This document shows positions 1 through 16,277 of a stretch of DNA of 16,277 nt, piece after piece. Source of the DNA: Planctomycetota bacterium. Its GTDB lineage: Bacteria > Planctomycetota > B15-G4 > SIAN01. The stretch covers positions 1 through 16,277 of the forward strand of contig JANNXA010000032.1 of assembly GCA_031409275.1 (NCBI GenBank), read 5' to 3'. A model generated the notes under the pieces. It saw nothing but the letters and a program-made list of their open reading frames with translations, made no database searches and had not been told where the DNA came from. Both the position numbers and the translations under genes were made by a program. Position 1 is the first letter of the stretch. Every line of letters starts with the position of its first letter.

Positions 1-261
1 GTCGACGCATGACATCGTCGGAAAACCGCGCTCCTTCCTCAGCGGGTCGGCAGACCCGCATCGTCGGAGCCGCGATTTCCCTCCTCGTCCTGCGCCGACA
101 TCCCGTCGCCTCGCGACGGGGCTCGTGAATAAACCGGGCTAGCGCTAGCGATGCCGCCCGTGTCCGATCGGCGCCCGCCCGCCGTCCAAACGGCGCTCCG
201 CCCGAGATTGGCATGAGCCGCGCCTTTGACGGCTTCGACGGCGGGCCGCATCATCCGGCGC

Positions 262-3099
262 ATGTGGAAGCCGAGAAACTCCCCCCGCGTCCCGCTCCTT
301 CTTGCCCTGGTCGCGCTGCTCGCGCTGGTCGTCGCCGCGCCGCTTGCGACCTCGCGACCGGTGGTCCGGCCTCCCGTGCACGCGGCGGAGTGCGCCGCGG
401 TCGATCCGCTCGTCGATGCGAAATGCGACTGCAAGAGCGGGTTCGGGGCGTGCCAGCACACGCTGCGGTCGCCCTGGGGGATCAGCGAGGATCCGTGCTA
501 CTGCGATCGCTGCCGCGAAGTCATCGAACACACCGGCGACGACGTGCCCGACGGCATGAACCCGCTGTGTTTCGGAAGCGGTCGTTCGGCGTGCTACCTG
601 AAGCGACACAGCGCGGCGTGGCATCTGGCCTGCAGCGAGTGTGTGCAGAACGAGAAGTGCTGCCCCGTCGCCAACAGCAAGAACTGCCCCAACTGCAACG
701 ACGCCGGACCCGGGCCGCTCGACAAGGACGACATGGGGCGGCCGGCGAAGGAGACGGTGCTGGCGCGATTGAAGGCGGAGGCGACGCTCGCCGACAACGA
801 CCATCTGATCCTGATGTACAACCGCCACTTCTACCTGTGCAGCGACGTGCGCGACGTCAAGGTGAAGATGCGCAACGGCTTTCGCGTCTTCAACGGACAT
901 GAGTACGCGCACCTGATGCTCGAGCGCGCCGAGATGGCGCGCAAGGAGTTCGTGCAGGCGTTCGGCGATCGCCTGGTGCTGAAGAAGCCGGTGGCGATCT
1001 TCCTGCCCGCGCAGGAAGGCGATGCGGCGTCGTTCCAGGGCGCCTACATGGGCTCGCCGAAAACCAATCAGCTCTACGGCGTCGGCGATGGCCCGAGCTT
1101 CGTCGGCGGCTTCTGTGGCAACGGCTTCTGCTCGTCCGGACAGAAGTATCGACCCGACGAGGGGCTCCACTTCGTCATGCGGCACATGATCGGCCACTCG
1201 CTGATCTCGGCATGGGTGGTCGGCGACGGCAACAATCGCACGTTGCCGCGCTGGCTGTTCGAAGGCGTGGGCCACTGGCTGTCGCGCCACCAGAAGCGCT
1301 TCAAGGACCTCGTGACCTACTGCGCCGACGAAGGGCAACCGGTGTCGGGCAGCGGCAAGGGGTGGGAGGCGGACTGCGCGAAGATGGCGGGACGCGCCAA
1401 GCTCGATTCGATCGAGAAGCTCTTCGGCAAGACGGCCATCGGCCAGCTGACCTACGAAGATCACCAGCGCTCCTGGAGCTACCTCGACCTCTGCCTCGAG
1501 GAGTGGCGCGAGCCGTTCGTCGCGATGCTGGCCGACCTGCGCCAGCAGAAGGAGGTGCGCGACTCCTTCATGAAGCACCTCGAATGCACGCCGGAGATCT
1601 TCGATCAGCGCTGGCGCGAGCGGTTGACCGGCAAGCGCCGCACGATGGACCCGAAGAAGGTCGAGGAGGGCGTCCTCGCCACCAACGAGACCCCGGGCTC
1701 GCGCGAGCGCAAAGGGCTGAAGAGCGAGCTCGAATTGCCCGCGTTGGCGGCACGCATTCGCGCGCTCGGCACGGTGGACGATCCGGCGACGGTCGACACG
1801 CTGCTCGATCTGCTGAGCAAGGACAGCGAGCTGGTGCGCGAATCGGTCATGGTCTCGCTGCTCAAGATGAAGGAGACGGAGTGCGTCGCCCGGATCGACG
1901 AGTACGGGCTCGTCCACGCCGAAGCGATCGTCCGCGCCTACTCGGCGCGCGCCTGCGGCAAGTTCAGGGTCGTCGCGGCGCTCGAGAAGCTGCGCGCGAT
2001 GTTCGCTGGCGACCGCAACTGGCTCGCGCGCGCCGAAGCGGCCATCGCGTGCGGCCGCATGAACGACACGGTGTCGATCGGCGCGCTGGCGAAGATGGTC
2101 GCCACCGACTCCGCGCAGAAGGCGCAGCTCGCCGCGATGGATGCGCTGGGGATGTTGGGGACCGAGGCGGAGGAGTCGATCCCCGAGGTCGCGAAGAACC
2201 TCGCCGCCGAGCCGTGGCAGCTGCGCGTCGCCGCGTGCCAGTCGCTTGGCGAGATCGGCAGCATGAAGGCGGTCGACGCGCTGATCGCCCGCATGGAAGT
2301 CGAGCAGGGCCACGTCCACGAGGAGATCCACGACGCGCTGAAGAAGATCTGCCGCTACGACCAGGGGCAGTTCGTCGCCGAGTGGAAGAAGTGGTGGGAG
2401 CGGGAGAAGGCCGCGCGCGGCGGCGGCCTGCCCGAGCGGCCGAAGACTCCGGCCAAGGAGGCGGCCGACCGCTACGCGACCGCGCCGCGCTACTACGGCA
2501 TCTCGATCTACTCGAACCGGATCGGCTTCGTCCTCGACACCTCGTTGTCGATGGACTCGAACTTCGAGCCCGATCCGAAGGCGACCAAGTCGTTGTCGCG
2601 CGACTACTCCGGCTCGACCAAGCTGCAGATCTGCAAGGAGGAGATCGCACAGACGCTGACCAACCTCAGCTCGCGCGCCCACTTCTCGATCATCGTCTTC
2701 AACACCGGCATCAAGTCGTACGACAAGACGCCGGTCGCGGCTTCGCCCGGCAACGTGGAGGCGGCGAAGAACTGGCTGCAGTCGTTGCCGCCCGTCGGGG
2801 AGACCAATTACTACGGAGGTCTGCGCGCGGCGCTCAACCTCGACGAGAACAGCAACGAGTGGCAGGCCAACTTCGAGGCAACCCCTGACACGCTGACCTT
2901 CCTCACCGACGGCATGCCGACGCAAGGCGAGATCACCGACGCCGACACGCTGCTCGAGTGGTACACCGCGCTGAACCGCTATGCCCGCATCCGCACACAC
3001 GTCATCGCGTTCGGCACCAAGGGCGTCGACATCCAGATGCTGCAGCGGATGGCCGAGCAGAATGGCGGCAAGTTCGTGATGGTGCCGGAGAAGGGCTGA
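262..3099 (+). CDS. Exported multidomain protein: signal peptide, Cys-rich region, zincin (peptidase MA)-like region, HEAT repeats, C-terminal vWA domain (~945 aa)
   Basis: ORF 226..3099. ATG at 262 gives a basic N-region plus hydrophobic stretch (MWKPRNSPRVPLLLALVALLALVVAAPLA). 15 Cys at 391-696. HEYAH at 898-912; HMIGH at 1183-1197 followed by LPRWLFEG. HEAT-like repeats (WLARAEAAIACG, WQLRVAACQSLG) ending in WKKWW. vWA MIDAS elements DTSLS (2536-2550), GETN and LTDG. Strong GC3 codon bias in this frame. Confidence 0.88.
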   Translation: MWKPRNSPRVPLLLALVALLALVVAAPLATSRPVVRPPVHAAECAAVDPLVDAKCDCKSGFGACQHTLRSPWGISEDPCYCDRCREVIEHTGDDVPDGMNPLCFGSGRSACYLKRHSAAWHLACSECVQNEKCCPVANSKNCPNCNDAGPGPLDKDDMGRPAKETVLARLKAEATLADNDHLILMYNRHFYLCSDVRDVKVKMRNGFRVFNGHEYAHLMLERAEMARKEFVQAFGDRLVLKKPVAIFLPAQEGDAASFQGAYMGSPKTNQLYGVGDGPSFVGGFCGNGFCSSGQKYRPDEGLHFVMRHMIGHSLISAWVVGDGNNRTLPRWLFEGVGHWLSRHQKRFKDLVTYCADEGQPVSGSGKGWEADCAKMAGRAKLDSIEKLFGKTAIGQLTYEDHQRSWSYLDLCLEEWREPFVAMLADLRQQKEVRDSFMKHLECTPEIFDQRWRERLTGKRRTMDPKKVEEGVLATNETPGSRERKGLKSELELPALAARIRALGTVDDPATVDTLLDLLSKDSELVRESVMVSLLKMKETECVARIDEYGLVHAEAIVRAYSARACGKFRVVAALEKLRAMFAGDRNWLARAEAAIACGRMNDTVSIGALAKMVATDSAQKAQLAAMDALGMLGTEAEESIPEVAKNLAAEPWQLRVAACQSLGEIGSMKAVDALIARMEVEQGHVHEEIHDALKKICRYDQGQFVAEWKKWWEREKAARGGGLPERPKTPAKEAADRYATAPRYYGISIYSNRIGFVLDTSLSMDSNFEPDPKATKSLSRDYSGSTKLQICKEEIAQTLTNLSSRAHFSIIVFNTGIKSYDKTPVAASPGNVEAAKNWLQSLPPVGETNYYGGLRAALNLDENSNEWQANFEATPDTLTFLTDGMPTQGEITDADTLLEWYTALNRYARIRTHVIAFGTKGVDIQMLQRMAEQNGGKFVMVPEKG

Positions 3100-3123: not shown

Positions 3124-5397
3124 CTACTGCGCGCCGCGCACCTTCGCCAGCACCGACCGCGCCTTCTTCGCCAGCGCGGGAGAGGGCTCGCCGACCAGCA
3201 TCGCCTCGATGGCGGCGATCGCCGGCTCGCCGTGGGCGGCGAGCGCTTCGACGGCGTCGAGCGCCTCGTCACGCACCCGACGGTCGGGATCGCGCAGCTG
3301 CTCCGAGAGGGTCACCACGGTCGCCGGCTCGGGGGCCGCGATCGCCGCGAAGGCGCCGATCGCCGCCGCGCGCACCTCCGGATCGTCGTCGTGGAGCCGC
3401 TCCGTCAGTCGCGACAATGCCGCCGCGGAGCTTCGATCGATGCGCTCGATCAGCCAGCACGCCCACTGTCGAACCGAGCCGTCGACGTCGTCGAGCGCCC
3501 GCGTCGCCGGCGCGAGCCAGGAGAGTCGCTCCGCCTCCTCGAGTGCGTCGTCGAGGCGATCATTGAGTTGGCCGAGCGCCCACTCGCGATGGATCGCGTC
3601 AGGCGCTTCGAGCTCGCGCAGCAGCCGCGCTCGAGCCGGCTCCGACTGGCCCTGATGGATGCGCAGCAGCGCCAGCGCGCTGTTCGTGGCGAGATCGATC
3701 GACGTGGTGTCGTCGCTCACCAGCAGCTCGAGCGCGCGCGTCGCGCCACGTGCGGACGGCCCGACTTTGCCGAGCGCCAGGACCACCTCGGCGCGCACGT
3801 TCGGGTCATCCTCTTTCGTCACCATCTGCTGCAGCGTCGACAAGGCCGCCTCAGCGGCGGACGGGTGGGCCGTGAGGACGGTCGCCGCCGCGACGCGGAC
3901 GCGCGCCTCGCGGTCCTTCAGGGCCTTCTGCACCGGCGCCCGCAGATCGGCGGGCAGGCGGTCGAGCTTCGCCATCGCGTCGAGCGCCGCGCATCGCACC
4001 GCGAGGTCGTCATCGCGAGCGCCGGCGGCCAGCAGCGGCAGCGCCGCCGTCGGCGCGAGGTCATGCTCGCGCAAGGTCTGAAGCGCGGCGAGTCGCACTT
4101 CGGGGCTGCGATCACTCGCGGCCTTCTGCAGCGCCTCGCTGAGCGGTTCCTCCGCGTCGTCTTCGGCGGCCCCGATCGCGCGGATCGCCGCGGCACGCAG
4201 CAGCGGCTCCTTGGCGCGGGCGAGTCGCAGCAAGGGCTCGGTGGCGTCGCGTCCACGGAACGGATGACCGCGGGTGGCGCGCAAAGCGGCGATGCGGATC
4301 GGCAGCAGCTCGTCCTCGAGTTGCGCGACTTGCAGCAGCGCGGCTCGGACCCGTTCCGAATCGTCGTTGAAGTCCGCCAGAGTGGCCGCGACGGCTTCGC
4401 GCAGCGCCGCGGGCTCGGACGGTTCGGCCAGCAGTCGGAGCAGGGTGGGAAGCGCCGCGTGCCCCTCCCACTCGAACTCCTTGGCCGCCTCGACCGCACC
4501 GACGCGCGACTCGAGCGGGAGCGTCGCGTCACCGGCGATCTCGACCAGCAGCGCCATCGATTGCGCGGCGGCGCGGTCGAGCCAGGAGAGGACGTTGAAC
4601 GCGACGCGCCGGACCCGTTGGCGCGGCGAACGGGCGCACTCGGCCAGCACCGGCCAGACCTCGGGAGCCTCGACGGCGCAACGCTGCAGTCCCCAAAGTG
4701 CGCTCGCAGCGACCTCGTCATCCGCGTGGCGAGTCGCGGCCATCAACGCCTCCTTCGCGACCAGCCCGAATCGGGCGAGCTCCTCAGCCGCCGTCTGCCG
4801 GACGCGGGGCCGTTCGCTGTCGAGGAACGGGAGGAGCGTCGCGAGCGTCTCCGGTCGCCACTCGCCGAGCAGTTGCAGCAGCGCTGCCGCTGCTCCGTCG
4901 TCGCGCTCCTCGCGAGCCGCCGCCGCCACCGCCTCCATGCCGTCGCGCGCCGCGCCCGGGTTGCGCCGCAGCGCCGCCGCCGCCATCCGTCGCACTCGCG
5001 CGGAGCGGTCGCGCAGCGCGGCGAAGAGCGACGCACGGACCGTTGCGTGGGGCAGGCCGAGGTGGTCGAGCGCCGCGATGGCGCCGAAGCGGACCTCCTC
5101 CTCGGGATCGGCCACGGCGGTGGCGAGCGCGTCGAGGGCGTTCGTCGACGGTTCCGTCAGTCGGCCGAGATCGTGCACGGCGCGCGCTCGCGTGGCGGCG
5201 TCACGGGAGGCGAGCTGTTCGATCAGCTCGACCTCCTTCGCCGCCGCGGCGCGCTCCTTGGCCGCGGCGCTCTTGCCCTGCGGAGGACTCAGGGCGGCGC
5301 GGGCATCTCCGGCCCCCGCCAACACCACCGCCACCCCGGTCGCTAGCAGCAGCGCTGCGTGGCGCGTGGCCGCGAAACCTCGACGAGCGCGTTTCAT
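3124..5397 (-). CDS. HEAT (PBS-lyase-type) repeat protein with N-terminal signal peptide (757 aa)
   Basis: Many repeats of the form D..P.VR.AA..AL (DPEEEVRFGAIAAL, DRSPEVRLAALQTL, DDDPEVRAAAIGAF, DPDRRVRDEALDAV). N-terminus MKRARRGFAATRHAALLLATGVAVVLAGAGDARA has an AxA cleavage site. Confidence 0.88.
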   Translation of the reverse strand: MKRARRGFAATRHAALLLATGVAVVLAGAGDARAALSPPQGKSAAAKERAAAAKEVELIEQLASRDAATRARAVHDLGRLTEPSTNALDALATAVADPEEEVRFGAIAALDHLGLPHATVRASLFAALRDRSARVRRMAAAALRRNPGAARDGMEAVAAAAREERDDGAAAALLQLLGEWRPETLATLLPFLDSERPRVRQTAAEELARFGLVAKEALMAATRHADDEVAASALWGLQRCAVEAPEVWPVLAECARSPRQRVRRVAFNVLSWLDRAAAQSMALLVEIAGDATLPLESRVGAVEAAKEFEWEGHAALPTLLRLLAEPSEPAALREAVAATLADFNDDSERVRAALLQVAQLEDELLPIRIAALRATRGHPFRGRDATEPLLRLARAKEPLLRAAAIRAIGAAEDDAEEPLSEALQKAASDRSPEVRLAALQTLREHDLAPTAALPLLAAGARDDDLAVRCAALDAMAKLDRLPADLRAPVQKALKDREARVRVAAATVLTAHPSAAEAALSTLQQMVTKEDDPNVRAEVVLALGKVGPSARGATRALELLVSDDTTSIDLATNSALALLRIHQGQSEPARARLLRELEAPDAIHREWALGQLNDRLDDALEEAERLSWLAPATRALDDVDGSVRQWACWLIERIDRSSAAALSRLTERLHDDDPEVRAAAIGAFAAIAAPEPATVVTLSEQLRDPDRRVRDEALDAVEALAAHGEPAIAAIEAMLVGEPSPALAKKARSVLAKVRGAQ

Positions 5398-7519: not shown

Positions 7520-9226
7520 ATGCGCGCGATTCCCTCGATCTTCGACGTTCTTCTCGGGGCGCTCCTCGCGCCTTGCCAGTCCGTCGAACGCAACGCTTCG
7601 ATGGACCCGATCAGCCGGATGCTGCTCTTCCCGAGCGACTTCGAGCTTGCCGACGCCGAGTTCGCAGCGCTGCAGCCGACGACGGTGAACTTCGAGAACG
7701 CCAGCGGCAGCGTGCTGCGCGGCCTCTGGTACGAGTCGACGGCGAGCGACCGCACCGTCCTGGTCTGCATGGGCAACACCGGCAACTGCAGCTGGTTTGC
7801 GCCGTATGCCGCGATCCTCCAGGGCGGCGGCTGCGACGTCCTGCTCTTCGACTACCAGGGTTATGGCGCGAGCGAGGGAACGGCGTCGCTGTTGTCGCTG
7901 CCAGGCGATGCGCAATCGGCGTGGCGCTTCGTCACCGAGACGAAAGGGCGTCGACCCGATCAGATCGGTCTGCTTGGTATCTCGCTCGGCTCGGTGCTGG
8001 CGTTGCAGCTCGCGGCGACGACGCAGCCGGCCGGGTGCGCGGTCGAGGACGTTTTCTTTCCTGAAGAGCAGTTGGCCGCGGCAACGGGCTCGCCCGAGTC
8101 GATGACGGCGCGAGTGGCGCTGACCGCGTTGAAGGCGCTGGTGCTGCCGCAGATCGATCCGCGCGCCAACGCGAAGCGCTACGGCGGGCCGCTCTTCCTG
8201 CTGCATGGCGACGCCGACTGGCTGCTGACGCCGATGGCGACGCTGCGCCTGCTCGCGCAACGACCCGACCACACGCGCACCTGGATCCTCGCGCAGACCG
8301 GCCATTCGCCCGATTCGTTGCAGGTCGACGAGTGGGAGTACCGCGATCAGCTGCGCCGCTTCTTCGGCGATGCGTTCGCTGCAGCCGAGGAAAGCGCCGC
8401 GCTGCCGATCGAGCCGCGCGCGACGGTGGCGGTGGCGCAGGCGGCGCCGCTGCGGCTGCGCGTCGAGGTGACGGCGGCGCGCGCAGCAGCGGTCCAGATC
8501 GCGCTGGTGCGATCGCGTCCGGATGCCGCGCCGCTCGACGCCTTCTACGAGCGCCGTTTCGTTCCGGCCGGCACCTCGACGTTCGAGTGCGACGCGCCGT
8601 TCCTGCCCGACCATGTCGTCGCGACCGAGATGGTCCACGCGCTGCCGCGGGGCGACGGGACCTTCGAGCCGGAGCTCTCGCCAGCCTCGCAGTCGCTTGC
8701 GGACTACGCGGAGCTCGAACGCGAATGGGGGACGCACGCGGGCTCCGTGAAGTTGCGCGTCGACCTCGCGGCGGCGTCGGGGCGCGGCCACGAGGTGTCG
8801 CTGCGCGGCGCGCGGGAGTGGGAGTGGCTGAAGCCGAGGCTGCCCGACTTCGAGGAGGTCGACCCGCGCATCCGCCCGCGCTACGCCGAGTTGCTGGCGT
8901 TTCTCGCCCACGACCTCGCCGTCAGCGAACGCTTCGGTGCGTACACGGCGTTGCGCGAAGTGCGACGCGCGATGATCGACTTCCTGCCGCCCGACCCGCG
9001 CCGCTTCGTCACGCTCGGCAACGCGCGCATCGTGGTCGGCCTGCCGGCCGGCCTCGTCCTCGGTCACCTTGTCGCGGCGTGGTCCGATGCCGTCGCCGCA
9101 GGCGACGTCGCGAATGCGCAGCAGCTGTGGCAACTGATGAAACGCTTCGAGCTGCCGCTCGACGAAGCGACGCAGCTGCCCGCTCCGCCTCAGCCGGCGA
9201 TCAGCTCCGGCGCGTCCGGCAAGTAG
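7520..9226 (+). CDS. Alpha/beta-fold hydrolase (ABHD13/17- or YfhR-like) with C-terminal extension of unknown function (~568 aa)
   Basis: MGNTGN (HGNAGN-like), FDYQGYGASEG, nucleophile elbow GISLG (7976-7990), LLHGDAD (Asp at 8216) and GH (His at 8303). GGAG at 7510-7513 precedes ATG 7520. Alternative starts at 7487 or 7601. Confidence 0.82.
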   Translation: MRAIPSIFDVLLGALLAPCQSVERNASMDPISRMLLFPSDFELADAEFAALQPTTVNFENASGSVLRGLWYESTASDRTVLVCMGNTGNCSWFAPYAAILQGGGCDVLLFDYQGYGASEGTASLLSLPGDAQSAWRFVTETKGRRPDQIGLLGISLGSVLALQLAATTQPAGCAVEDVFFPEEQLAAATGSPESMTARVALTALKALVLPQIDPRANAKRYGGPLFLLHGDADWLLTPMATLRLLAQRPDHTRTWILAQTGHSPDSLQVDEWEYRDQLRRFFGDAFAAAEESAALPIEPRATVAVAQAAPLRLRVEVTAARAAAVQIALVRSRPDAAPLDAFYERRFVPAGTSTFECDAPFLPDHVVATEMVHALPRGDGTFEPELSPASQSLADYAELEREWGTHAGSVKLRVDLAAASGRGHEVSLRGAREWEWLKPRLPDFEEVDPRIRPRYAELLAFLAHDLAVSERFGAYTALREVRRAMIDFLPPDPRRFVTLGNARIVVGLPAGLVLGHLVAAWSDAVAAGDVANAQQLWQLMKRFELPLDEATQLPAPPQPAISSGASGK

Positions 9227-10533
9227 TCGCGCGTCAAGTTCTCGCAGCCCTTCGCGCGCACCACGAGGTCATCCTCGATGCGCACGCCGCCGAACGGCGT
9301 CAGCGCCTCGACCAGCTTCCAGTCGATGGCGGCGCCGGCCGGGCTCGCGCGCAGCTCGGTCAGCATCGAGTCGATGAAGTAGACGCCGGGCTCGATCGTG
9401 AAGACCTGGCCCTCCTCGATCCGCGTCGTGTTGCGCAGGAACGGGTTGTTCGTCTTCGGCTGCACGTTGCGGCAGCCGACGTCGTGGGTCTGCAGACCGA
9501 GCGAGTGGCCGAGTCCGTGCGGCAGGAACTTGCGAGTGGTGCCGTTGGCGACGAGCTCGGCTGCGCTCGACTTGGCGATCCCGACTTCGCGCAGCAGCGG
9601 CGCCAGCAACTCGTGCGCCTGCTCGTGCAGATCCTCGTAGGGGCGCCCGATGGTCGCGGCCTGGCACAGCCGCTGTTGCAACGTTTCGAGACCGGTGGCG
9701 AGCTGGCCGAAAGCGGCCGCCGCCGCGCCGCGACCCTTGACCGCGGTGCGCGTGATATCGCTGTCGTAGCCGAGGCACTTGGCGCCGGCATCGAGCAGCA
9801 GGGTCTGCGCGCGGCTCTTCGCGCGGCCGTAGCCGACGTGATGGAGGGTCGCCGCGTTCTTGCCCAGCGCCACGATGTTCTTGTAGGGCGTCTCCGGGTC
9901 GTCCTGGCTGGTGGCGCGCAGGTAGGCGAGGTGCAGCTCGAACTCGCTGCATTCGCCGCCGCGGAAGGCGTCGAGCACGGCGCGGTGGCCCGCGGCGGCG
10001 CGCAGGTTCGCTTCGCGCAGGCAGAGCGTTTCGTAGGGCGTCTTCTTCACGCGCAACGCGTCGAGCCGCGTCAGGAGTTCGCGCGCGTTGAAGGCCGCAT
10101 CGGGCAGGCCCCACAGCGAGCAGTCCCCGCGCTCCTCCCCGATGAACGCGAGGCGACGCCCGGCGGGCAGCAGCTCGCGGATCCGCGCCGGGTCTTTCAC
10201 TTCGCGCACGTCGAACGACGGCCAGAAGTGGTCCGACTCCGGCGCCTTGGCCTGCTCCCAGAAGTCGACGACGTTGAACCAGAAGAGTGTCGGCTTCTTG
10301 CCCGCCTCGATCAGCAGCGCGGAACGGCTGGTCTCGAGCGGCAGCCAGTGGTGGAAGTGAGGGACGGGGCGCAGCGCGAAGAACTGGTCATCGAAGAGGC
10401 TGCGCGACTTCGGGGCTCCCGAGTGGATCACGACGCCGTCGAAGCCCGCCTCGCTCAGCACGCGCCCGTACTCGCGCCCGAGCCACGCCACGTGGTCGCG
10501 GTAGGTTGCGGTGAGCGCGGTCTGGTCGAGCAT
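9190..10533 (-). CDS. pepQ: Xaa-Pro dipeptidase (prolidase), M24B family (~447 aa)
   Basis: Metal-ligand motifs LLDAGA, SDITRT, PHGLGHSLGLQTHDVG, FTIEPGVYFID and GGVRIEDD. N-terminal FDDQFFALRPVPHFHHWLP resembles E. coli-type PepQ. Start ATG at 10533 (MLDQTAL). Confidence 0.92.
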   Translation of the reverse strand: MLDQTALTATYRDHVAWLGREYGRVLSEAGFDGVVIHSGAPKSRSLFDDQFFALRPVPHFHHWLPLETSRSALLIEAGKKPTLFWFNVVDFWEQAKAPESDHFWPSFDVREVKDPARIRELLPAGRRLAFIGEERGDCSLWGLPDAAFNARELLTRLDALRVKKTPYETLCLREANLRAAAGHRAVLDAFRGGECSEFELHLAYLRATSQDDPETPYKNIVALGKNAATLHHVGYGRAKSRAQTLLLDAGAKCLGYDSDITRTAVKGRGAAAAAFGQLATGLETLQQRLCQAATIGRPYEDLHEQAHELLAPLLREVGIAKSSAAELVANGTTRKFLPHGLGHSLGLQTHDVGCRNVQPKTNNPFLRNTTRIEEGQVFTIEPGVYFIDSMLTELRASPAGAAIDWKLVEALTPFGGVRIEDDLVVRAKGCENLTRDYLPDAPELIAG

Positions 10534-10777: not shown

Positions 10778-11338
10778 ATGGCGTCCGACGACGACGCAGT
10801 GAGGGAGCTACTGGCCGCGTTCGATCGCGGCGACGAAGAGGCCCGCGCACAGCTCTTCACGCTCCTCTACGACGAGCTGCGCGCCCGCGCGGGCAAGCTC
10901 GCCGGCCGTCACGGCCGCCACGAGACGCTGCGGGCGACCGCGATCGTGCATGAGGTCTACATGCGCCTCGTCCACGCGGGCGTCGGCGGCTGGAAGGATC
11001 GCGCCCATTTCCTGGCCGCCGCCGCGCGTGCGATGCGGCATGTGCTGATCGACTACGCCCGCAAGCGCGGCCGCCAGAAGCGGCAAGCCGATGGCGTGCG
11101 CGTGGCGGTCGAGGAGCTGCTGGACAGCTACGAGGATCGCGCCATCGACCTCGAGGCGCTCGACCTTGCGCTGACGAAGATGGCCGAGTTCAACCCCGAG
11201 ATGGCGCAGGCGGTCGAACTGCGCTTCTTCGGCGGCGCGAGCGTGGAGGAGGCGGCAAAGCTCCTGGGCATGACGAAGCGCACCTTCGAGCGGCGCTGGG
11301 AAGCGGCGCGCGCGTGGCTGCGGACCGAAGTCGGATGA
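10778..11338 (+). CDS. ECF sigma factor, TIGR02999 / PF07638 (ECF43-like, kinase-associated, ~186 aa)
   Basis: LYDELRARA, TLRATAIVHEVYMRL, DRAHFLAAAARAMRHVLIDYAR, VELRFFGG..VEEAA and RRWEAARAWL. GGAG at 10764-10767 precedes ATG 10778. Confidence 0.92.
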   Translation: MASDDDAVRELLAAFDRGDEEARAQLFTLLYDELRARAGKLAGRHGRHETLRATAIVHEVYMRLVHAGVGGWKDRAHFLAAAARAMRHVLIDYARKRGRQKRQADGVRVAVEELLDSYEDRAIDLEALDLALTKMAEFNPEMAQAVELRFFGGASVEEAAKLLGMTKRTFERRWEAARAWLRTEVG

Positions 11339-14046
11339 ATCCGGAACGCTGGGCTCGGGTCGAGGCGCTGTTCGAGCGCGCGAAAGCGCTGCCCGAGTCG
11401 GAATGGCCGTTGTTCCTCGCCAACGAGGCGGCGGACGACATCGAGCTCGTCGACCTCGTGCTCTCGATGCTGCGCGCTCGCGCAGGGTCGAACTTCATCG
11501 ACCCCCCGGGTAGCGGGCCGCACGCGCCGCCGAGTGGTCCCGACTTGTGGATCGGTCGCAAGCTCGGCGACTTCGAGCTGGTGGAACGGATCGGCGCGGG
11601 CGGCATGGGGCTGGTCTACAAGGCGCGCCAGCTCTCGCTCCGGCGCGACGTCGCCGTGAAGGTGCTGCCATTCCAGACGCTTTCGAGTCCGAACCAGGTC
11701 GCCCGGTTCGAACGCGAGTCGCAGATCGCGGGACGGCTCCATCACAAGAACCTCGTCGAGATCCATGCCGTCGGCCAGGACGGCGACGTGCACTGGTTCG
11801 CGATGGAGCTGGTCGACGGCGTCGACCTTTCCGCGGAGATCAAGCGCCTTCGCGGTGAACGCGAGGCGCGCGGCGGTCGCCCGGGCCTGCTCCCGTTCGA
11901 TTCGAAGGAGTTCCTCGGCGCGGTCGCGGCGCTGATGGTGCAGGCGGCCGATGGGCTGGTGTGCGCCCACGCGGCCGGCGTCGTCCATCGCGACATCAAG
12001 CCGAGCAACCTGCTGCTCGATCGCGCGGGCACGATTCGCATCGTCGACTTCGGCCTCGCGCGCGACGAGGTCAGCGATCGCTTGACCAAGAGCGGCGAGC
12101 AGCTCGGCACCGCGCACTACATGAGCCCCGAGCAGGTGCGCCGTCGCGCGCACCGAGTCGACGAACGCACGGACATCTACTCGCTCGGCGTGGTGCTGTA
12201 CGAATTGCTGACCTTGCGGCGGCCGTTCAACGGCAAGACCTCCGCCGAGATCTGGTGGAGCATCACGCACCACGAGCCGCGCTCGCTGCGCAAGGTCGCG
12301 CCGCGCGTCCCGCGCGACCTTGCCACCATCTGCGAGACGGCGATGGCGCGCCGTCTTTTCGATCGATACCAGAGCGCCGCGGCGTTTCGCGACGACCTGC
12401 AGCGCTTCATCGATCGCGAAGCGATCGCCGCGAAGCCGTTGCCGCTGCACCGGCGAGCCGGGCGCTTCGTCGGAAAGCACCGCGCCCTGTTCGCCGGCGC
12501 CGCGGTCGCGCTGCTCGCGCTCGCGCTCGCGGGAGGAATCGGGGGCAGCCGTTGGAGCCATCGCCAACGGCGGATCGACGCGTGGCTGCAGCAGTTCCAG
12601 GTCGCCCTCGATCTGCGCGATTGGAGTGGACTGCCGGAGCCGGGCGCTGCCGCACGCCGTGCCCTCGTCGAAATGGACCAAGGAAGTGTGGACCTCGGGG
12701 CTTCGGGTCGGCAGCTCGCGGACCAGCTGCGCCGGCGCCTCGAGGTCCATCGCTCTTTCGAGCTGGAGCGCGGCCGGGCGCTCCTGGCGGGCGGCAAGGC
12801 CGATCATCAGCGCTGGAAGGGTCAAGACCGCGAGTTCAGGGCGTCCTTCTCGTCGCTTCAAATCGGTGAGGCGCTGCGGCGGCTGGGTGACCTGGCGACG
12901 ATCTTTCCCGACGACGTCGAAGTCGTCGCGGCGGCCGCGGTCGAGAACAGCTTCCCGCGAGTGACACTGAGCCTTGCCGCGGAGACGCTCGCGGCCGCGC
13001 CGCTCGCCGGTCAGGCACGTGCGTGGCGGCGGCCGATCGACGACCTCACGGAGACGGTCGGCTCCGCCATCGACATGGGGCCGCTGCCGATCGACGACGC
13101 GGCCGTGCCTCCTGGCCATTGGCGCTTCGTCGTCGAAGTACCTGAGTGGGGCTTTGCCGAGCTGGTCCGCGATCTCGTCCCCAGCGTCACGACTTGTCGG
13201 CTGGTGGCGCGTGTGCTGGCCGCGCCGGTCGCGATGCGCCGCATCGAGGGCGGGACGTTCGAGTTCCGACGCAACGCCGACTCGTCGCTCGGGTGCTCGC
13301 AGACCGCCGCCTCCGCCCCGTTCGAGACCTTCTGGATCGACGAAGCGGAGCTTTCGAACCGGGAGTTCGTCGCCTACCTCGAGGGCGCGCAGGCGCCGCC
13401 GCCGATTCACTGGAGTCATCTCGGCTACGGTGGCCGCGACTGGCGGGAGCTGCCGTTTGGCGACGGGCCCGATGCGGACGGCTGGCGCGAGCGCTGGCTC
13501 GACCTGCCGGTGGTCGGGCTCACGTATGCCGAAGCGACGGCGGTCGCCGAGTGGTACGGCAAGCGACTGCCGACCCACGTCGAGCTCGAACGGGCGCAGC
13601 GCGGCGCGGCGGGGCTCTACCTGCCGTGGGAGGGGCTCGAGCGCCGCGAGGACGCCGGCGCCTGCAACGTCGATCAGCCGCTTTGGTACCTGATTCCGTC
13701 CGATCTGTCGGCACCGAAGCCGACACCCACCGACCTCCATCGCGCCTACTACCGCAACTACCTGCGCTACGCGGTGCCGACTCGCGCGGACGGCTACCGC
13801 CACGGTCCCGAGCAGCTCTTCCACGCCTTCGGCAACGTTGCCGAGTGGTCGTCGACGCTCCTGCTCGAAGAGGTCGAAGGGCGTTTGGAGCCGAAGCGCT
13901 TCGATCGCCAGGTGCTTGGGGGTGGCTGGGATGCGATGGCGTCGTCGATGACGCTCGCGTCGCATGTGCGCGTTGGAATCGGTGCCGCTGACGTCAATGA
14001 CCACACGGGATTGCGCTGCGCACGGAGCGCGGCCGCAAAGCCCTGA
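11335..14046 (+). CDS. Membrane Hanks-type Ser/Thr protein kinase fused to a C-terminal FGE-sulfatase (SUMF1/EgtB/PvdO-like) domain (~903 aa)
   Basis: ATGA overlap with the sigma stop codon. Kinase motifs GAGGMGLV, VAVK, RFERE, HRDIKPSN, DFG, GTAHYMSPE and DIYSLG. TM segment ALFAGAAVALLALALAGGIGG (~12484-12546). FGE-fold motifs MRRIEGGTF, FWIDEAELSNREF, PVVGLTYAEA, KRLPT, GNVAEW, GGGW and GLRCAR. Confidence 0.92.
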   Translation: MNPERWARVEALFERAKALPESEWPLFLANEAADDIELVDLVLSMLRARAGSNFIDPPGSGPHAPPSGPDLWIGRKLGDFELVERIGAGGMGLVYKARQLSLRRDVAVKVLPFQTLSSPNQVARFERESQIAGRLHHKNLVEIHAVGQDGDVHWFAMELVDGVDLSAEIKRLRGEREARGGRPGLLPFDSKEFLGAVAALMVQAADGLVCAHAAGVVHRDIKPSNLLLDRAGTIRIVDFGLARDEVSDRLTKSGEQLGTAHYMSPEQVRRRAHRVDERTDIYSLGVVLYELLTLRRPFNGKTSAEIWWSITHHEPRSLRKVAPRVPRDLATICETAMARRLFDRYQSAAAFRDDLQRFIDREAIAAKPLPLHRRAGRFVGKHRALFAGAAVALLALALAGGIGGSRWSHRQRRIDAWLQQFQVALDLRDWSGLPEPGAAARRALVEMDQGSVDLGASGRQLADQLRRRLEVHRSFELERGRALLAGGKADHQRWKGQDREFRASFSSLQIGEALRRLGDLATIFPDDVEVVAAAAVENSFPRVTLSLAAETLAAAPLAGQARAWRRPIDDLTETVGSAIDMGPLPIDDAAVPPGHWRFVVEVPEWGFAELVRDLVPSVTTCRLVARVLAAPVAMRRIEGGTFEFRRNADSSLGCSQTAASAPFETFWIDEAELSNREFVAYLEGAQAPPPIHWSHLGYGGRDWRELPFGDGPDADGWRERWLDLPVVGLTYAEATAVAEWYGKRLPTHVELERAQRGAAGLYLPWEGLERREDAGACNVDQPLWYLIPSDLSAPKPTPTDLHRAYYRNYLRYAVPTRADGYRHGPEQLFHAFGNVAEWSSTLLLEEVEGRLEPKRFDRQVLGGGWDAMASSMTLASHVRVGIGAADVNDHTGLRCARSAAAKP

Positions 14047-14073
14047 GCCGACTCGTTCAGAGAGGGAGAACGC

Positions 14074-14709
14074 ATGTCCGACCTGCCCAAGCGTTGTTTC
14101 CAGTTGGAAGCCAGCCTGGTGACGACGTCGCAACGCCCGACCTTCGATGGATCGGTGTCGATTCGCGAGATCCCGATGAGTGAGCTGCAGCTCGTCGAGG
14201 CGCGTCTCGACGGCCAGCCGCTCGAGGTCCACGCGCTCGCCAACGACGTGCGCCGCGAGCTGCGCAAGGCGGCGAATGCGCTGGTGGCCGCCCTCCTGCC
14301 GAACTCGCCGGTGAAGGGCTTCGTGGTCAACGAATCGAAACCGATCGGCCCGATCTGGATCATCATTCCGGGCGACTACTACCTCCATCCCATCGACACG
14401 AACGGTGCGGTGTGTGTTTCCACGGTGTCGGACGCGAACGGCACCGTCTGGATCCAGCTCGAGCTGCGCGCGCTGCCGATCACCTGCCCCGAGCTTTCGG
14501 CGTCGACGTCGGCGGCGAAGCTGGCGATGAAGCCGTCGAGTGCGAAAGCGAGCCAGAACCCCGCGGCGAAGTCGACCGGCAAGAAGCGCGTTTCCAAGAA
14601 GAGCACGAAGAAGGTCGCGAAGAAGGCTCCGAAGAAGAAGGCCAGCAAGAAGGCCAGCAAGACGGTCCGCAAGACGATCAGCAAGAAGGGTGGCCGCGGT
14701 GTTCGCTGA
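14074..14709 (+). CDS. Hypothetical protein with histone H1-like Lys/Ala/Ser-rich C-terminal tail (211 aa)
   Basis: Starts 27 bp after the kinase stop, with purine-rich AGAGGGAG upstream. About 145 aa globular-looking N-terminal domain, then a 65-aa tail with 21 Lys, 4 Arg and no acidic residues. GC3-biased codons. Confidence 0.78.
   Translation: MSDLPKRCFQLEASLVTTSQRPTFDGSVSIREIPMSELQLVEARLDGQPLEVHALANDVRRELRKAANALVAALLPNSPVKGFVVNESKPIGPIWIIIPGDYYLHPIDTNGAVCVSTVSDANGTVWIQLELRALPITCPELSASTSAAKLAMKPSSAKASQNPAAKSTGKKRVSKKSTKKVAKKAPKKKASKKASKTVRKTISKKGGRGVR
14635..14661 (+). repeat. Tandem 12-bp repeat AAGAAGGCCAGC x2 (encodes KKAS) within the Lys-rich tail
   Basis: Exact copies at 14635-14646 and 14647-14658, followed by a partial AAG. 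Confidence 0.8.
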
Positions 14710-15670
14710 CGAGGTGCCGCCGGACTCGGCGGCGTCGGCGGGGTCGGCGCCCCAGCCGAGTCCGCCGCCACGCCGCCCGACGAGCCCGACCGAGTGGAAG
14801 GCGATGTTCAATGCGCGGGCGGCGGCGCTGAAACCGTCCGATCGCGCCCGCCGCTTCTTCCTCCAGTTCGACGCCTGGACCAGTTCCGAGTTGCTGGCGC
14901 TGCTCGACGACCCGGGCTTCGTCGCGTCGCTGCGCCCACCGACGCGACGACTCTTCGCGACCGTCCGGCCGACGCTGCCCTTTTCGCGGCCGACCGCGTT
15001 CTTCGAGATGGCGTTGATGCTCTCCAAGCAGGCGGTCTCTCGTGCTGAGCGCATGGTTCGCGGGATGGAGCTCACGCCGCCGCTGCCGGAGCCGATCGAC
15101 GAGCGGCCGCCGCTGCCGTGCGCCAGCCATCCGCAAGCGCTGCTGCGGATGGCCAAGTACCTCGAACGGATCTTCGAACACGGTTTTCCGGGAGTGCACG
15201 CCGCCCCCAACGACGGCGCGCCGTGGCGAGCGTTCGTCGCGGCGTTCGCGGCGTTTGGTTCGGGCGCTCTGGCGACGCTTGCGCCAACACCGCTTGGCGG
15301 ATGGCCCACACCGCTCAACACCGAACCGGACGGTGCCTACTTCTTCCTCTTCGCAGAGTTCGCGTTGCGGCGCGTCGAGCTCGCGTGGTCGCCGTTCTGG
15401 TTCAGGACGGCGCGGCTCTTCGTGGCGCTCGAGGACCTCTTCGACGCGGCCTACGAGTGGCCGATGATGCGGCGCAATCTGCAGGAGTACTCGCGCAAAC
15501 CTGGGCCAGCCAAGCCGCGGATCGACGCGTTCATGCAACACCTCGCGCGCTTCGAGGCGGACTTCAAAGGCCGCGCGACGTTGACGCGATTGACGCGGGT
15601 CCACGCCTTGAACGTGTGCCACGCCAACCGCGACGAGATCGTCGCGGGGTTCCCTCCGCAGAGCGGCTGA
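14690..15670 (+). CDS. Hypothetical protein, probably mainly alpha-helical (~290-326 aa; start uncertain)
   Basis: ORF 14540..15670. Plausible starts are GTG 14690 or 14699 (overlapping the upstream gene, preceded by AAGAAGG) or ATG 14804 (preceded by GGAAGG). Protein-like composition (FLQFDAWTS, EPDGAYFFLFAEFAL) after a Pro-rich N-terminus. Confidence 0.7.
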   Translation: MAAVFADEVPPDSAASAGSAPQPSPPPRRPTSPTEWKAMFNARAAALKPSDRARRFFLQFDAWTSSELLALLDDPGFVASLRPPTRRLFATVRPTLPFSRPTAFFEMALMLSKQAVSRAERMVRGMELTPPLPEPIDERPPLPCASHPQALLRMAKYLERIFEHGFPGVHAAPNDGAPWRAFVAAFAAFGSGALATLAPTPLGGWPTPLNTEPDGAYFFLFAEFALRRVELAWSPFWFRTARLFVALEDLFDAAYEWPMMRRNLQEYSRKPGPAKPRIDAFMQHLARFEADFKGRATLTRLTRVHALNVCHANRDEIVAGFPPQSG

Positions 15671-15990
15671 GGGGGAGCGCGCGAGGTCGCGCGGATTGCG
15701 CTCGGCGCGAACGCAGGCGCCAATTGCACTAGGACCGCGGAACGCGCGGGGCAAAGCGGCAGCCTGCATCGCTTGAGACGTTCACGACGTCGGAAGAGGC
15801 TTTCGGGCGAACGTGACGATCGGCCGGACAACGCCTTGACGCCCTGCAACACCGCGCTACTCATGAGCCTCGCCGGATCGACCCGCAGCGCTACCGACGG
15901 TCGGAACGCAGCGGGATGCTCAACCTTGCGAAGCAGCGGATCGAGGGAGCAGGCTCTCATCAGGGGTAGACGCGGCGGATCGCGCCGCGA

Positions 15991-15996
15991 AGGAGG
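15991..15996 (+). promoter_or_regulatory. Shine-Dalgarno sequence AGGAGG
   Basis: Perfect AGGAGG 7 nt upstream of ATG 16004. Confidence 0.7.
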
Positions 15997-16003
15997 GCGA
16001 GCG

Positions 16004-16277
16004 ATGAGGACGAATCAGGCAGTGGCCGACGTGTTGTCGAGCGCTGCCCTAGTCGGCGGAATCGTCGAGCCGCAGCAAAAGAGTGCGGGGGGGGCGCACT
16101 TCGACACGAAGCTGATTCGCGGGCGAGGCCGGGCGCCTGGTGGCCGCTGCTCGTCGCGTTGCTGCTGAGCGTCGCGTCGACTCATTCGATTCGCGGGCAA
16201 ACCAGCATCACTTCGTACTACGTCAATGACGGTCGCAGCGGGGCCTACGACTTCACGGCAGGCGAGATCGCAGTCGA
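16004..16277 (+). pseudogene. 5' end of a probable secreted-protein gene, frameshifted at a G8 tract (16087-16094) and truncated by the window edge
   Basis: The frame from ATG 16004 stops at 16168. The -1 frame after the G8 tract reads ..RARPGAWWPLLVALLLSVASTHSIRG/QTSITSYYVNDGRSGAYDFTAGEIAV.., open to the window edge. That frame has no ATG/GTG/TTG between its stop at 15967 and TTG 16159, which lies inside the hydrophobic core. Confidence 0.55.

Follow-up and report, generated by a model that had tools for sequence, protein, structure and literature searches.

The window analyzed, a stretch of 16,277 nucleotides, represents one whole contig from the 5.6-Mb genome of a Planctomycetota bacterium. 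Four co-oriented genes lie on its plus strand: an ECF43-type sigma factor gene (10778–11338, 186 aa), a gene for a Hanks Ser/Thr receptor kinase (11335–14046, 903 aa) and two orphan genes, ORF3 (14074–14709), encoding a folded core and a basic tail, and ORF4, which ends at 15670 and has candidate starts at GTG 14690, GTG 14699 and ATG 14804. All reading frames were confirmed, as was the near-zero spacing described in an earlier sequence-only reading of this DNA. The sigma factor and kinase genes overlap by ATGA at 11335–11338, a 27-bp gap (14047–14073) holding the ribosome-site-like motif GAGGGAG separates the kinase gene from ORF3, and ORF3 overlaps ORF4 by 20 bp with GTG 14690 or by 11 bp with GTG 14699. 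The database gene call for ORF4 (P0001) begins at 14804; since the homologs P0002 (66% identical) and L074 are 20–30 residues longer at the upstream side, a GTG start is favored. GC content at the third codon position was 0.86–0.92 across the four frames, including the ORF3 tail. A promoter scan of the window found no sigma-70 site, and an alignment of four sigma upstream regions revealed no convincing common motif. Terminator-like matches on the plus strand fell within the kinase gene (one) and within ORF4 (two), the matches being near chance level (7 versus 3.5 ± 2.0).

The gene divergent from the sigma factor gene encodes PepQ, a Xaa-Pro dipeptidase (9190–10533, minus strand). The same neighbor was found at the loci L006, L074 and L085; in L074, the sigma factor gene is missing between the PepQ and kinase genes. 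Further upstream in the window, a gene for a 957-aa protein (226–3099, plus strand), Cys-rich at its N-terminus, containing HEAT repeats and ending in a vWA domain, is convergent with a gene for a 757-aa HEAT-repeat protein (3124–5397). Downstream of ORF4, a 131-aa ORF (15773–16168) has non-coding-like codon GC, and the start of a gene for a probable exported protein (about 16098–16277, plus strand) is cut at the contig end.

The sigma factor matched TIGR02999 with 190 bits (cut-off 126) and PF07638 with E = 3 × 10−44. Its region 2.2 reads RATA, an uncharged motif replacing DAED, and includes Thr54 (codon 10937–10939), which was placed at the phospho-site position of region 2.2 by motif, without alignment to EcfK itself. 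A Thr is kept at this position in 21 of the 23 sigma factors of the module. According to the ECF43 literature, this Thr is the site phosphorylated by the kinase encoded at position +1 (PMC8999054; PMC13147305; PMC7826278, supplement part 13), and the consensus of region 2.2 in ECF43 is QTTA (PMC13147305).

The kinase consists of a kinase domain (PF00069, aa ~80–365), a hydrophobic segment (aa ~385–403), a helical and beta-rich middle part and an FGE-sulfatase-like domain (PF03781, aa 634–897). The catalytic residue K109 was present in all 45 aligned kinases, and D220, N225 and D238 each in 44 of them (the alignment was made without L052, L055, L092, L095, L108 and L113, which are split, truncated or redundant). 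By hydropathy criterion only, a single membrane segment was predicted, with a peak of 2.3 preceded by basic residues. The beta-rich stretch before the FGE domain is presumably PEGA-like. Pfam searches of the 903-aa protein found neither a PEGA match nor any domain beyond kinase and FGE, and a STAND NTPase was absent. The pair of ECF43 sigma factor and Hanks kinase-FGE receptor recognized in the earlier reading therefore stands, by TIGR02999 above cut-off, PF07638, Thr54, PF00069 and PF03781. The FGE (sulfatase-modifying-factor) domain is the third most common kinase-associated domain in Planctomycetota and mostly periplasmic in single-span kinases, as stated in PMC11032199; PMC8195603 treats it as a C-type-lectin-fold recognizer.

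In its core, the locus resembles the pairs EcfK-PknS of Xanthomonas citri and EcfP-PknT of Vibrio parahaemolyticus, which share with it a TIGR02999/PF07638 sigma factor with an uncharged Thr motif in region 2.2 and, in PMC8999054, PMC13147305 and PMC7826278, a +1 kinase with one membrane segment and no nearby anti-sigma gene. The described ECF43 kinases carry extracytoplasmic TPRs (PMC7826278, supplement), whereas the kinase in the window carries an FGE-like domain. Conserved neighbors resembling ORF3 or ORF4 are not listed in the accessible ECF43 entry (PMC7826278, supplement part 13). Planctomycetota single-span FGE kinases show the same architecture, and the accessible part of PMC11032199 does not mention a coupled sigma factor or downstream partners. 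A likeness also exists to the FGS counter-invader systems (Kaur et al. 2021, PMC8195603), which combine an FGE/FGS lectin fold with a signaling domain and variable effectors; the sensors described there are intracellular and contain a STAND NTPase, whereas in the window the FGE domain follows a membrane segment and no STAND NTPase is present. A literature search, with most subscription papers outside its coverage, found no description of the module. The locus is a variant of a known signaling scheme, with two undescribed partner families added.

ORF4 (14699–15670, core 14804–15667) encodes an all-alpha orphan domain, for which AlphaFold gave a model with pLDDT 95.1 and pTM 0.93. A profile search retrieved 352 representatives at E ≤ 0.001, and no Pfam family was common to the 116 aligned members. 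Numbered from 14804, the conserved residues are D23, R80, F151, G154, P175, E185 and W199. D23, R80, E185 and W199, retained by 91–100% of the 116 members, suggest a candidate binding or catalytic site, as judged by conservation. Many homologs carry an extra N-terminal domain of ~110–140 aa, which the copy in the window does not have; a search for long ORF4 fusions (826–2355 aa) found none. Counting its own genome, ORF4 homologs occur in 20 of 401 genomes of the phylum and in 17 of 42 of the class (one profile row, G396, with E = 10−4 and 12 stops, was left out of the fetched loci).

A kinase gene adjoins ORF4 in 28 of the 31 Planctomycetota genome loci, 27 times upstream on the same strand and once convergently; two of the remaining loci are cut by contig ends, and one (L061) has no kinase. 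These loci come from 23 genomes of nine families and are kin rather than independent trials. Two metagenome loci, L074 and L085, also pair ORF4 with the kinase. The linkage holds amid different chromosomal neighbors and outlasts rearrangement, with a convergent sigma factor gene in L058 and L059 and a convergent kinase gene in L093.

A small gene lies between kinase and ORF4 in most ORF4 loci. In L043, L051, L060 and L062 this slot and ORF4 form a single reading frame, and in L045, L048 and L049 the small gene is located downstream of ORF4 instead of upstream. For comparison we used 20 kinase loci that scored highly and for which no ORF4 was known beforehand, 17 of which were in the alignment; no ORF4 match was found at these loci among the matches listed, and a class-wide search likewise returned nothing there. 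Defined as a same-strand gene of 100–220 aa 3′ of the kinase gene, a small partner was detected for 33 of the 45 kinases of the clade and for all 17 ORF4-less controls, versus 3 of 24 further kinases encoded in the own genome. The 12 clade kinases without such a gene comprise four fusions, three loci with ORF4 first, one rearranged locus, three lower-GC loci in which the rule fails, and one late start. At one locus (L102:2593-3965), the small partner gene is duplicated in tandem. The own genome has a second kinase-FGE locus on contig C24, with neither an adjacent sigma factor gene nor ORF4, where a small partner of 174 aa is encoded (G000:C24:39492-40016, minus strand); L098 and L106 are orthologous to it.

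The sigma factor proved less constant. Among the 28 kinase-linked ORF4 loci, 21 contain a TIGR02999-like sigma factor and two a TIGR02984-like ECF instead; in the others, the sigma factor is absent within the stretch or the locus is truncated. Several ORF4-less control loci contain a divergent TIGR02984-like sigma factor. TIGR02999 sigma factors are also a widespread background, with matches above cut-off in 39 of 42 genomes of the class. Within this kinase clade the sigma factor is exchangeable, unlike in the described ECF43 pairs, and the small partner and the kinase are more constant than the sigma factor. In a quick tree, 46 kinases formed one group (SH-aLRT 90) over which ORF4 presence was scattered, requiring eight changes. 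In L052, L055 and L108 the kinase gene is broken into two reading frames, by frameshift or assembly error.

Taken together, the four genes very probably constitute a conserved module. The proposal that two orphans extend the sigma–kinase pair was borne out by the neighborhoods of their homologs (28 of 31 kinase-linked, small gene in 17 of 17 controls). As a four-gene unit, the locus is looser than proposed: the orphans are a conserved extension, but ORF4 is optional and the sigma factor may be a TIGR02984-like ECF or absent.

The ORF3 core (aa 1–140, 14074–14493) is a fast-evolving alpha/beta domain, as indicated by the AlphaFold model (pLDDT 94.9, pTM 0.86), orthologs and fold search. Orthologs were found in L006, L074, L085 and L008. 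Beyond these, relationships within the slot are blurred: 13 of 48 ORF3-slot sequences link pairwise to that of the window at E < 0.05, a level at which eight decoy matches also appeared. An hhalign comparison of two sets of slot proteins gave probabilities of 0.9 and 6 and detected no homology, so the slot may contain more than one family. Pfam searches of 20 slot proteins yielded a single weak match, ORF3, ORF4 and six slot proteins matched nothing in PHROGs, and the atlas held no usable match for ORF3. Identities were 23–33% for ORF3 and 32–39% for ORF4, versus 59–71% for the sigma factor, 57–71% for the kinase and 45–66% for the FGE domain. The helical middle region of the kinase (28–43%) diverges about as fast as ORF3; fast change therefore need not signal conflict.

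Fold comparisons gave weak leads only. For ORF3, Foldseek returned no match at E ≤ 0.001 and no chain reached Z ≥ 5, which does not imply a novel fold. The best rows belonged to the gp25 family, namely 2ia7 (Z 4.7, a weak match with 86 residues aligned at rmsd 4.0), TssE (Z 4.0) and IraD (Z 3.7). Approximately 13 of the top 50 rows were baseplate or gp25-type chains, judged from titles; on the level of the model, these are one weak fold match and not many. IraD, which bears an EPRI motif and in which the gp25 fold has been co-opted to regulate a sigma pathway, provides a regulatory precedent for the fold (PMC6546054). ORF3 differs from IraD, gp25 and TssE by the low Z, by identities of 5–9% and by an extra long N-terminal strand; its core lacks the EPRI motif (no EPR), and no contractile-tail genes were recognized near ORF3 loci. 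For ORF4, neither Foldseek against PDB and BFVD (E ≤ 0.001) nor a comparison with 48,161 chains (Z ≥ 5) gave a match, again without implying a novel fold. The best row was the TetR-family protein RamR (Z 4.6, rmsd 4.2, 138 residues aligned; weak), and weak rows for HEPN and nucleotidyltransferase four-helix folds covered residues about 160–280 (Z 3.0–3.7). In the atlas, the nearest clusters to ORF4 were unnamed (0.93–0.94), the nearest named one being DUF2600 (0.91).

The tail of ORF3 (aa 141–211, 14494–14709) is rich in Lys, Ala and Ser, with 30% Lys and a net charge of +25. A comparable Lys-rich window was found in only 5 of 4,863 called ORFs of the genome, on unrelated proteins. The three closest orthologs (L006, L074 and L085) stop directly after the folded core, and none of the 47 other slot sequences had a Lys-rich tail, the maximum being 6 Lys in 30 aa, compared with 14 here; five of the 47 are N-terminal parts cut out of fusions, some have trimmed starts, and the set is without the neighbor of P0002, the nearest ORF4 relative. 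To judge from these sequences, the basic tail is a local, lineage-specific addition and not conserved.

The ORF4 domain is not restricted to kinase loci. A motif scan of metagenomes detected 24 loci, including three false positives (L078, L080 and L087). Two of the 21 true matches lie in the kinase module and 19 (13–14 distinct) have no kinase, FGE or sigma factor nearby, a ratio that is no census because the motif favors the kinase-free subfamily. Orphan homologs independent of ECF43-kinase loci would, by the earlier reading, refute it, and for ORF4 this is partly the case: its core occurs without kinase or sigma factor in 19 of 21 true metagenome matches. In the kinase-free metagenome proteins, the ORF4 core is C-terminal; among seven kinase-free proteins scanned, four had an OmpA domain, one PG_binding_1 and two neither. 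Genes next to kinase-free ORF4 genes encode GH25, CHAP/DUF2272 and PLD proteins as well as proteins resembling trypsin or beta-lactamase; many of these neighbors begin with an acidic leader.

Gene clusters recurring in L064, L065, L066, L068, L069, L077, L079 and L084 encode proteins that combine an acidic N-terminal leader rich in Glu, Gly and Phe with an OmpA or PG-binding domain and, at the C-terminus, one of various hydrolases. Conserved genes lacking annotation lie next to them, often along with genes for an amidohydrolase and for an activator of sigma-54. These clusters look like an uncharacterized cargo or secretion system. In L073 (2030–8112), an ORF4-domain gene is part of a compact same-strand cluster with transglutaminase-like, trypsin-like, BTAD regulator and several unannotated genes, which we take to resemble a virus-like element; the cluster had no match in PHROGs. 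Other arrangements include ORF4 domains following pentapeptide repeats (P0086, P0144) or fused to unannotated N- or C-terminal domains (P0139, P0090).

For very few kinase-activated ECF sigma factors, to our knowledge, have the signal and the outputs been established. What the analysis observed directly is the order and coupling of the genes, the intactness of the catalytic residues, the presence of the Thr and the counts of linked loci. The locus likely represents a module for envelope surveillance that has not been described before and whose output can be swapped. More specifically, we tentatively favor, at somewhat less than even confidence, a kinase–sigma receptor with ORF3 as adaptor or modulator and an optional, probably envelope-directed ORF4 output. 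An outside ligand would be sensed by the lectin-fold FGE domain of the membrane receptor kinase, which would phosphorylate the coupled ECF43 sigma factor on Thr54; the phosphorylated sigma factor would then direct transcription of ORF3 and, where present, ORF4. ORF3 would act as a cytoplasmic protein-binding adaptor or modulator of the kinase clade that also docks ORF4, and ORF4 as a swappable effector domain, its target probably being the cell envelope or an attacker. The effector reading draws on the position of ORF4 elsewhere, in the C-terminal slot held by hydrolases in neighboring genes; the absence of a visible signal peptide from ORF4 in the window fits badly with envelope action. A complex prediction of the ORF3 core with kinase residues 60–903 (score 0.00, mark 0.32) gave no evidence either way.

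Alternatively, ORF3 and ORF4 could be regulated outputs only, with ORF3 accompanying effectors such as ORF4 in the manner of a chaperone or an immunity protein and exerting no feedback on kinase or sigma factor. The four fusions, the adjacency of the small gene to ORF4 even where the order is swapped, and the similarly high divergence of both proteins agree with this, but the small gene is kept in 17 of 17 kinase loci without nearby ORF4, and we consider the alternative somewhat unlikely. A role of ORF3 as an exported cognate ligand or co-receptor that would meet its own kinase on the periplasmic side, in many variable pairs for self/non-self recognition, is decidedly less probable. The slot is tied to an FGE-bearing kinase clade, its sequences are very variable, and the FGE domain is described as a C-type-lectin-fold recognizer in PMC8195603. 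Two slot proteins, L099 (4218–4805) and the second copy in L102, have apparent lipoprotein signals, which fit badly with a cytoplasmic ORF3; by a simple hydropathy rule, however, no signal peptide was detected in ORF3 of the window or in nearly all other slot proteins screened. That the orphans are passengers inherited alongside an ordinary ECF43-kinase pair seems very improbable: TIGR02999 sigma factors are common in the class and the loci share ancestry, but linkage spans nine families, varied chromosomal neighbors, inversions, order swaps and fusions, and the 28 of 31 kinase-linked ORF4 loci and the small gene in 17 of 17 ORF4-less controls argue against hitch-hiking. Finally, the histone-H1-like chromatin effector of the sequence-only reading, with the kinase phosphorylating a basic Ser/Thr-rich tail, is scarcely credible since that tail, although real, coding-like, rare in the genome and perhaps able to bind nucleic acid non-specifically in one lineage, is absent from the closest orthologs and from 47 of 47 other slot sequences.

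Beyond the adaptor model, the kinase clade might comprise variable receptor-plus-cognate-partner pairs, in which a lectin-fold sensor would detect a predator, phage or rival, ORF3, as a repurposed baseplate-fold protein, would couple this sensor with sigma factors and effectors that can replace one another, and ORF4 would represent a new envelope-attacking enzyme class shared with the undescribed acidic-leader cargo system; as a whole, this extension appears unlikely. With the chromatin-effector idea removed, the module supplies two conserved, well-folding partner families open to direct testing, and it links a regulatory operon with a mobile orphan domain that is carried, in other settings, by cargo proteins anchored to the cell wall.
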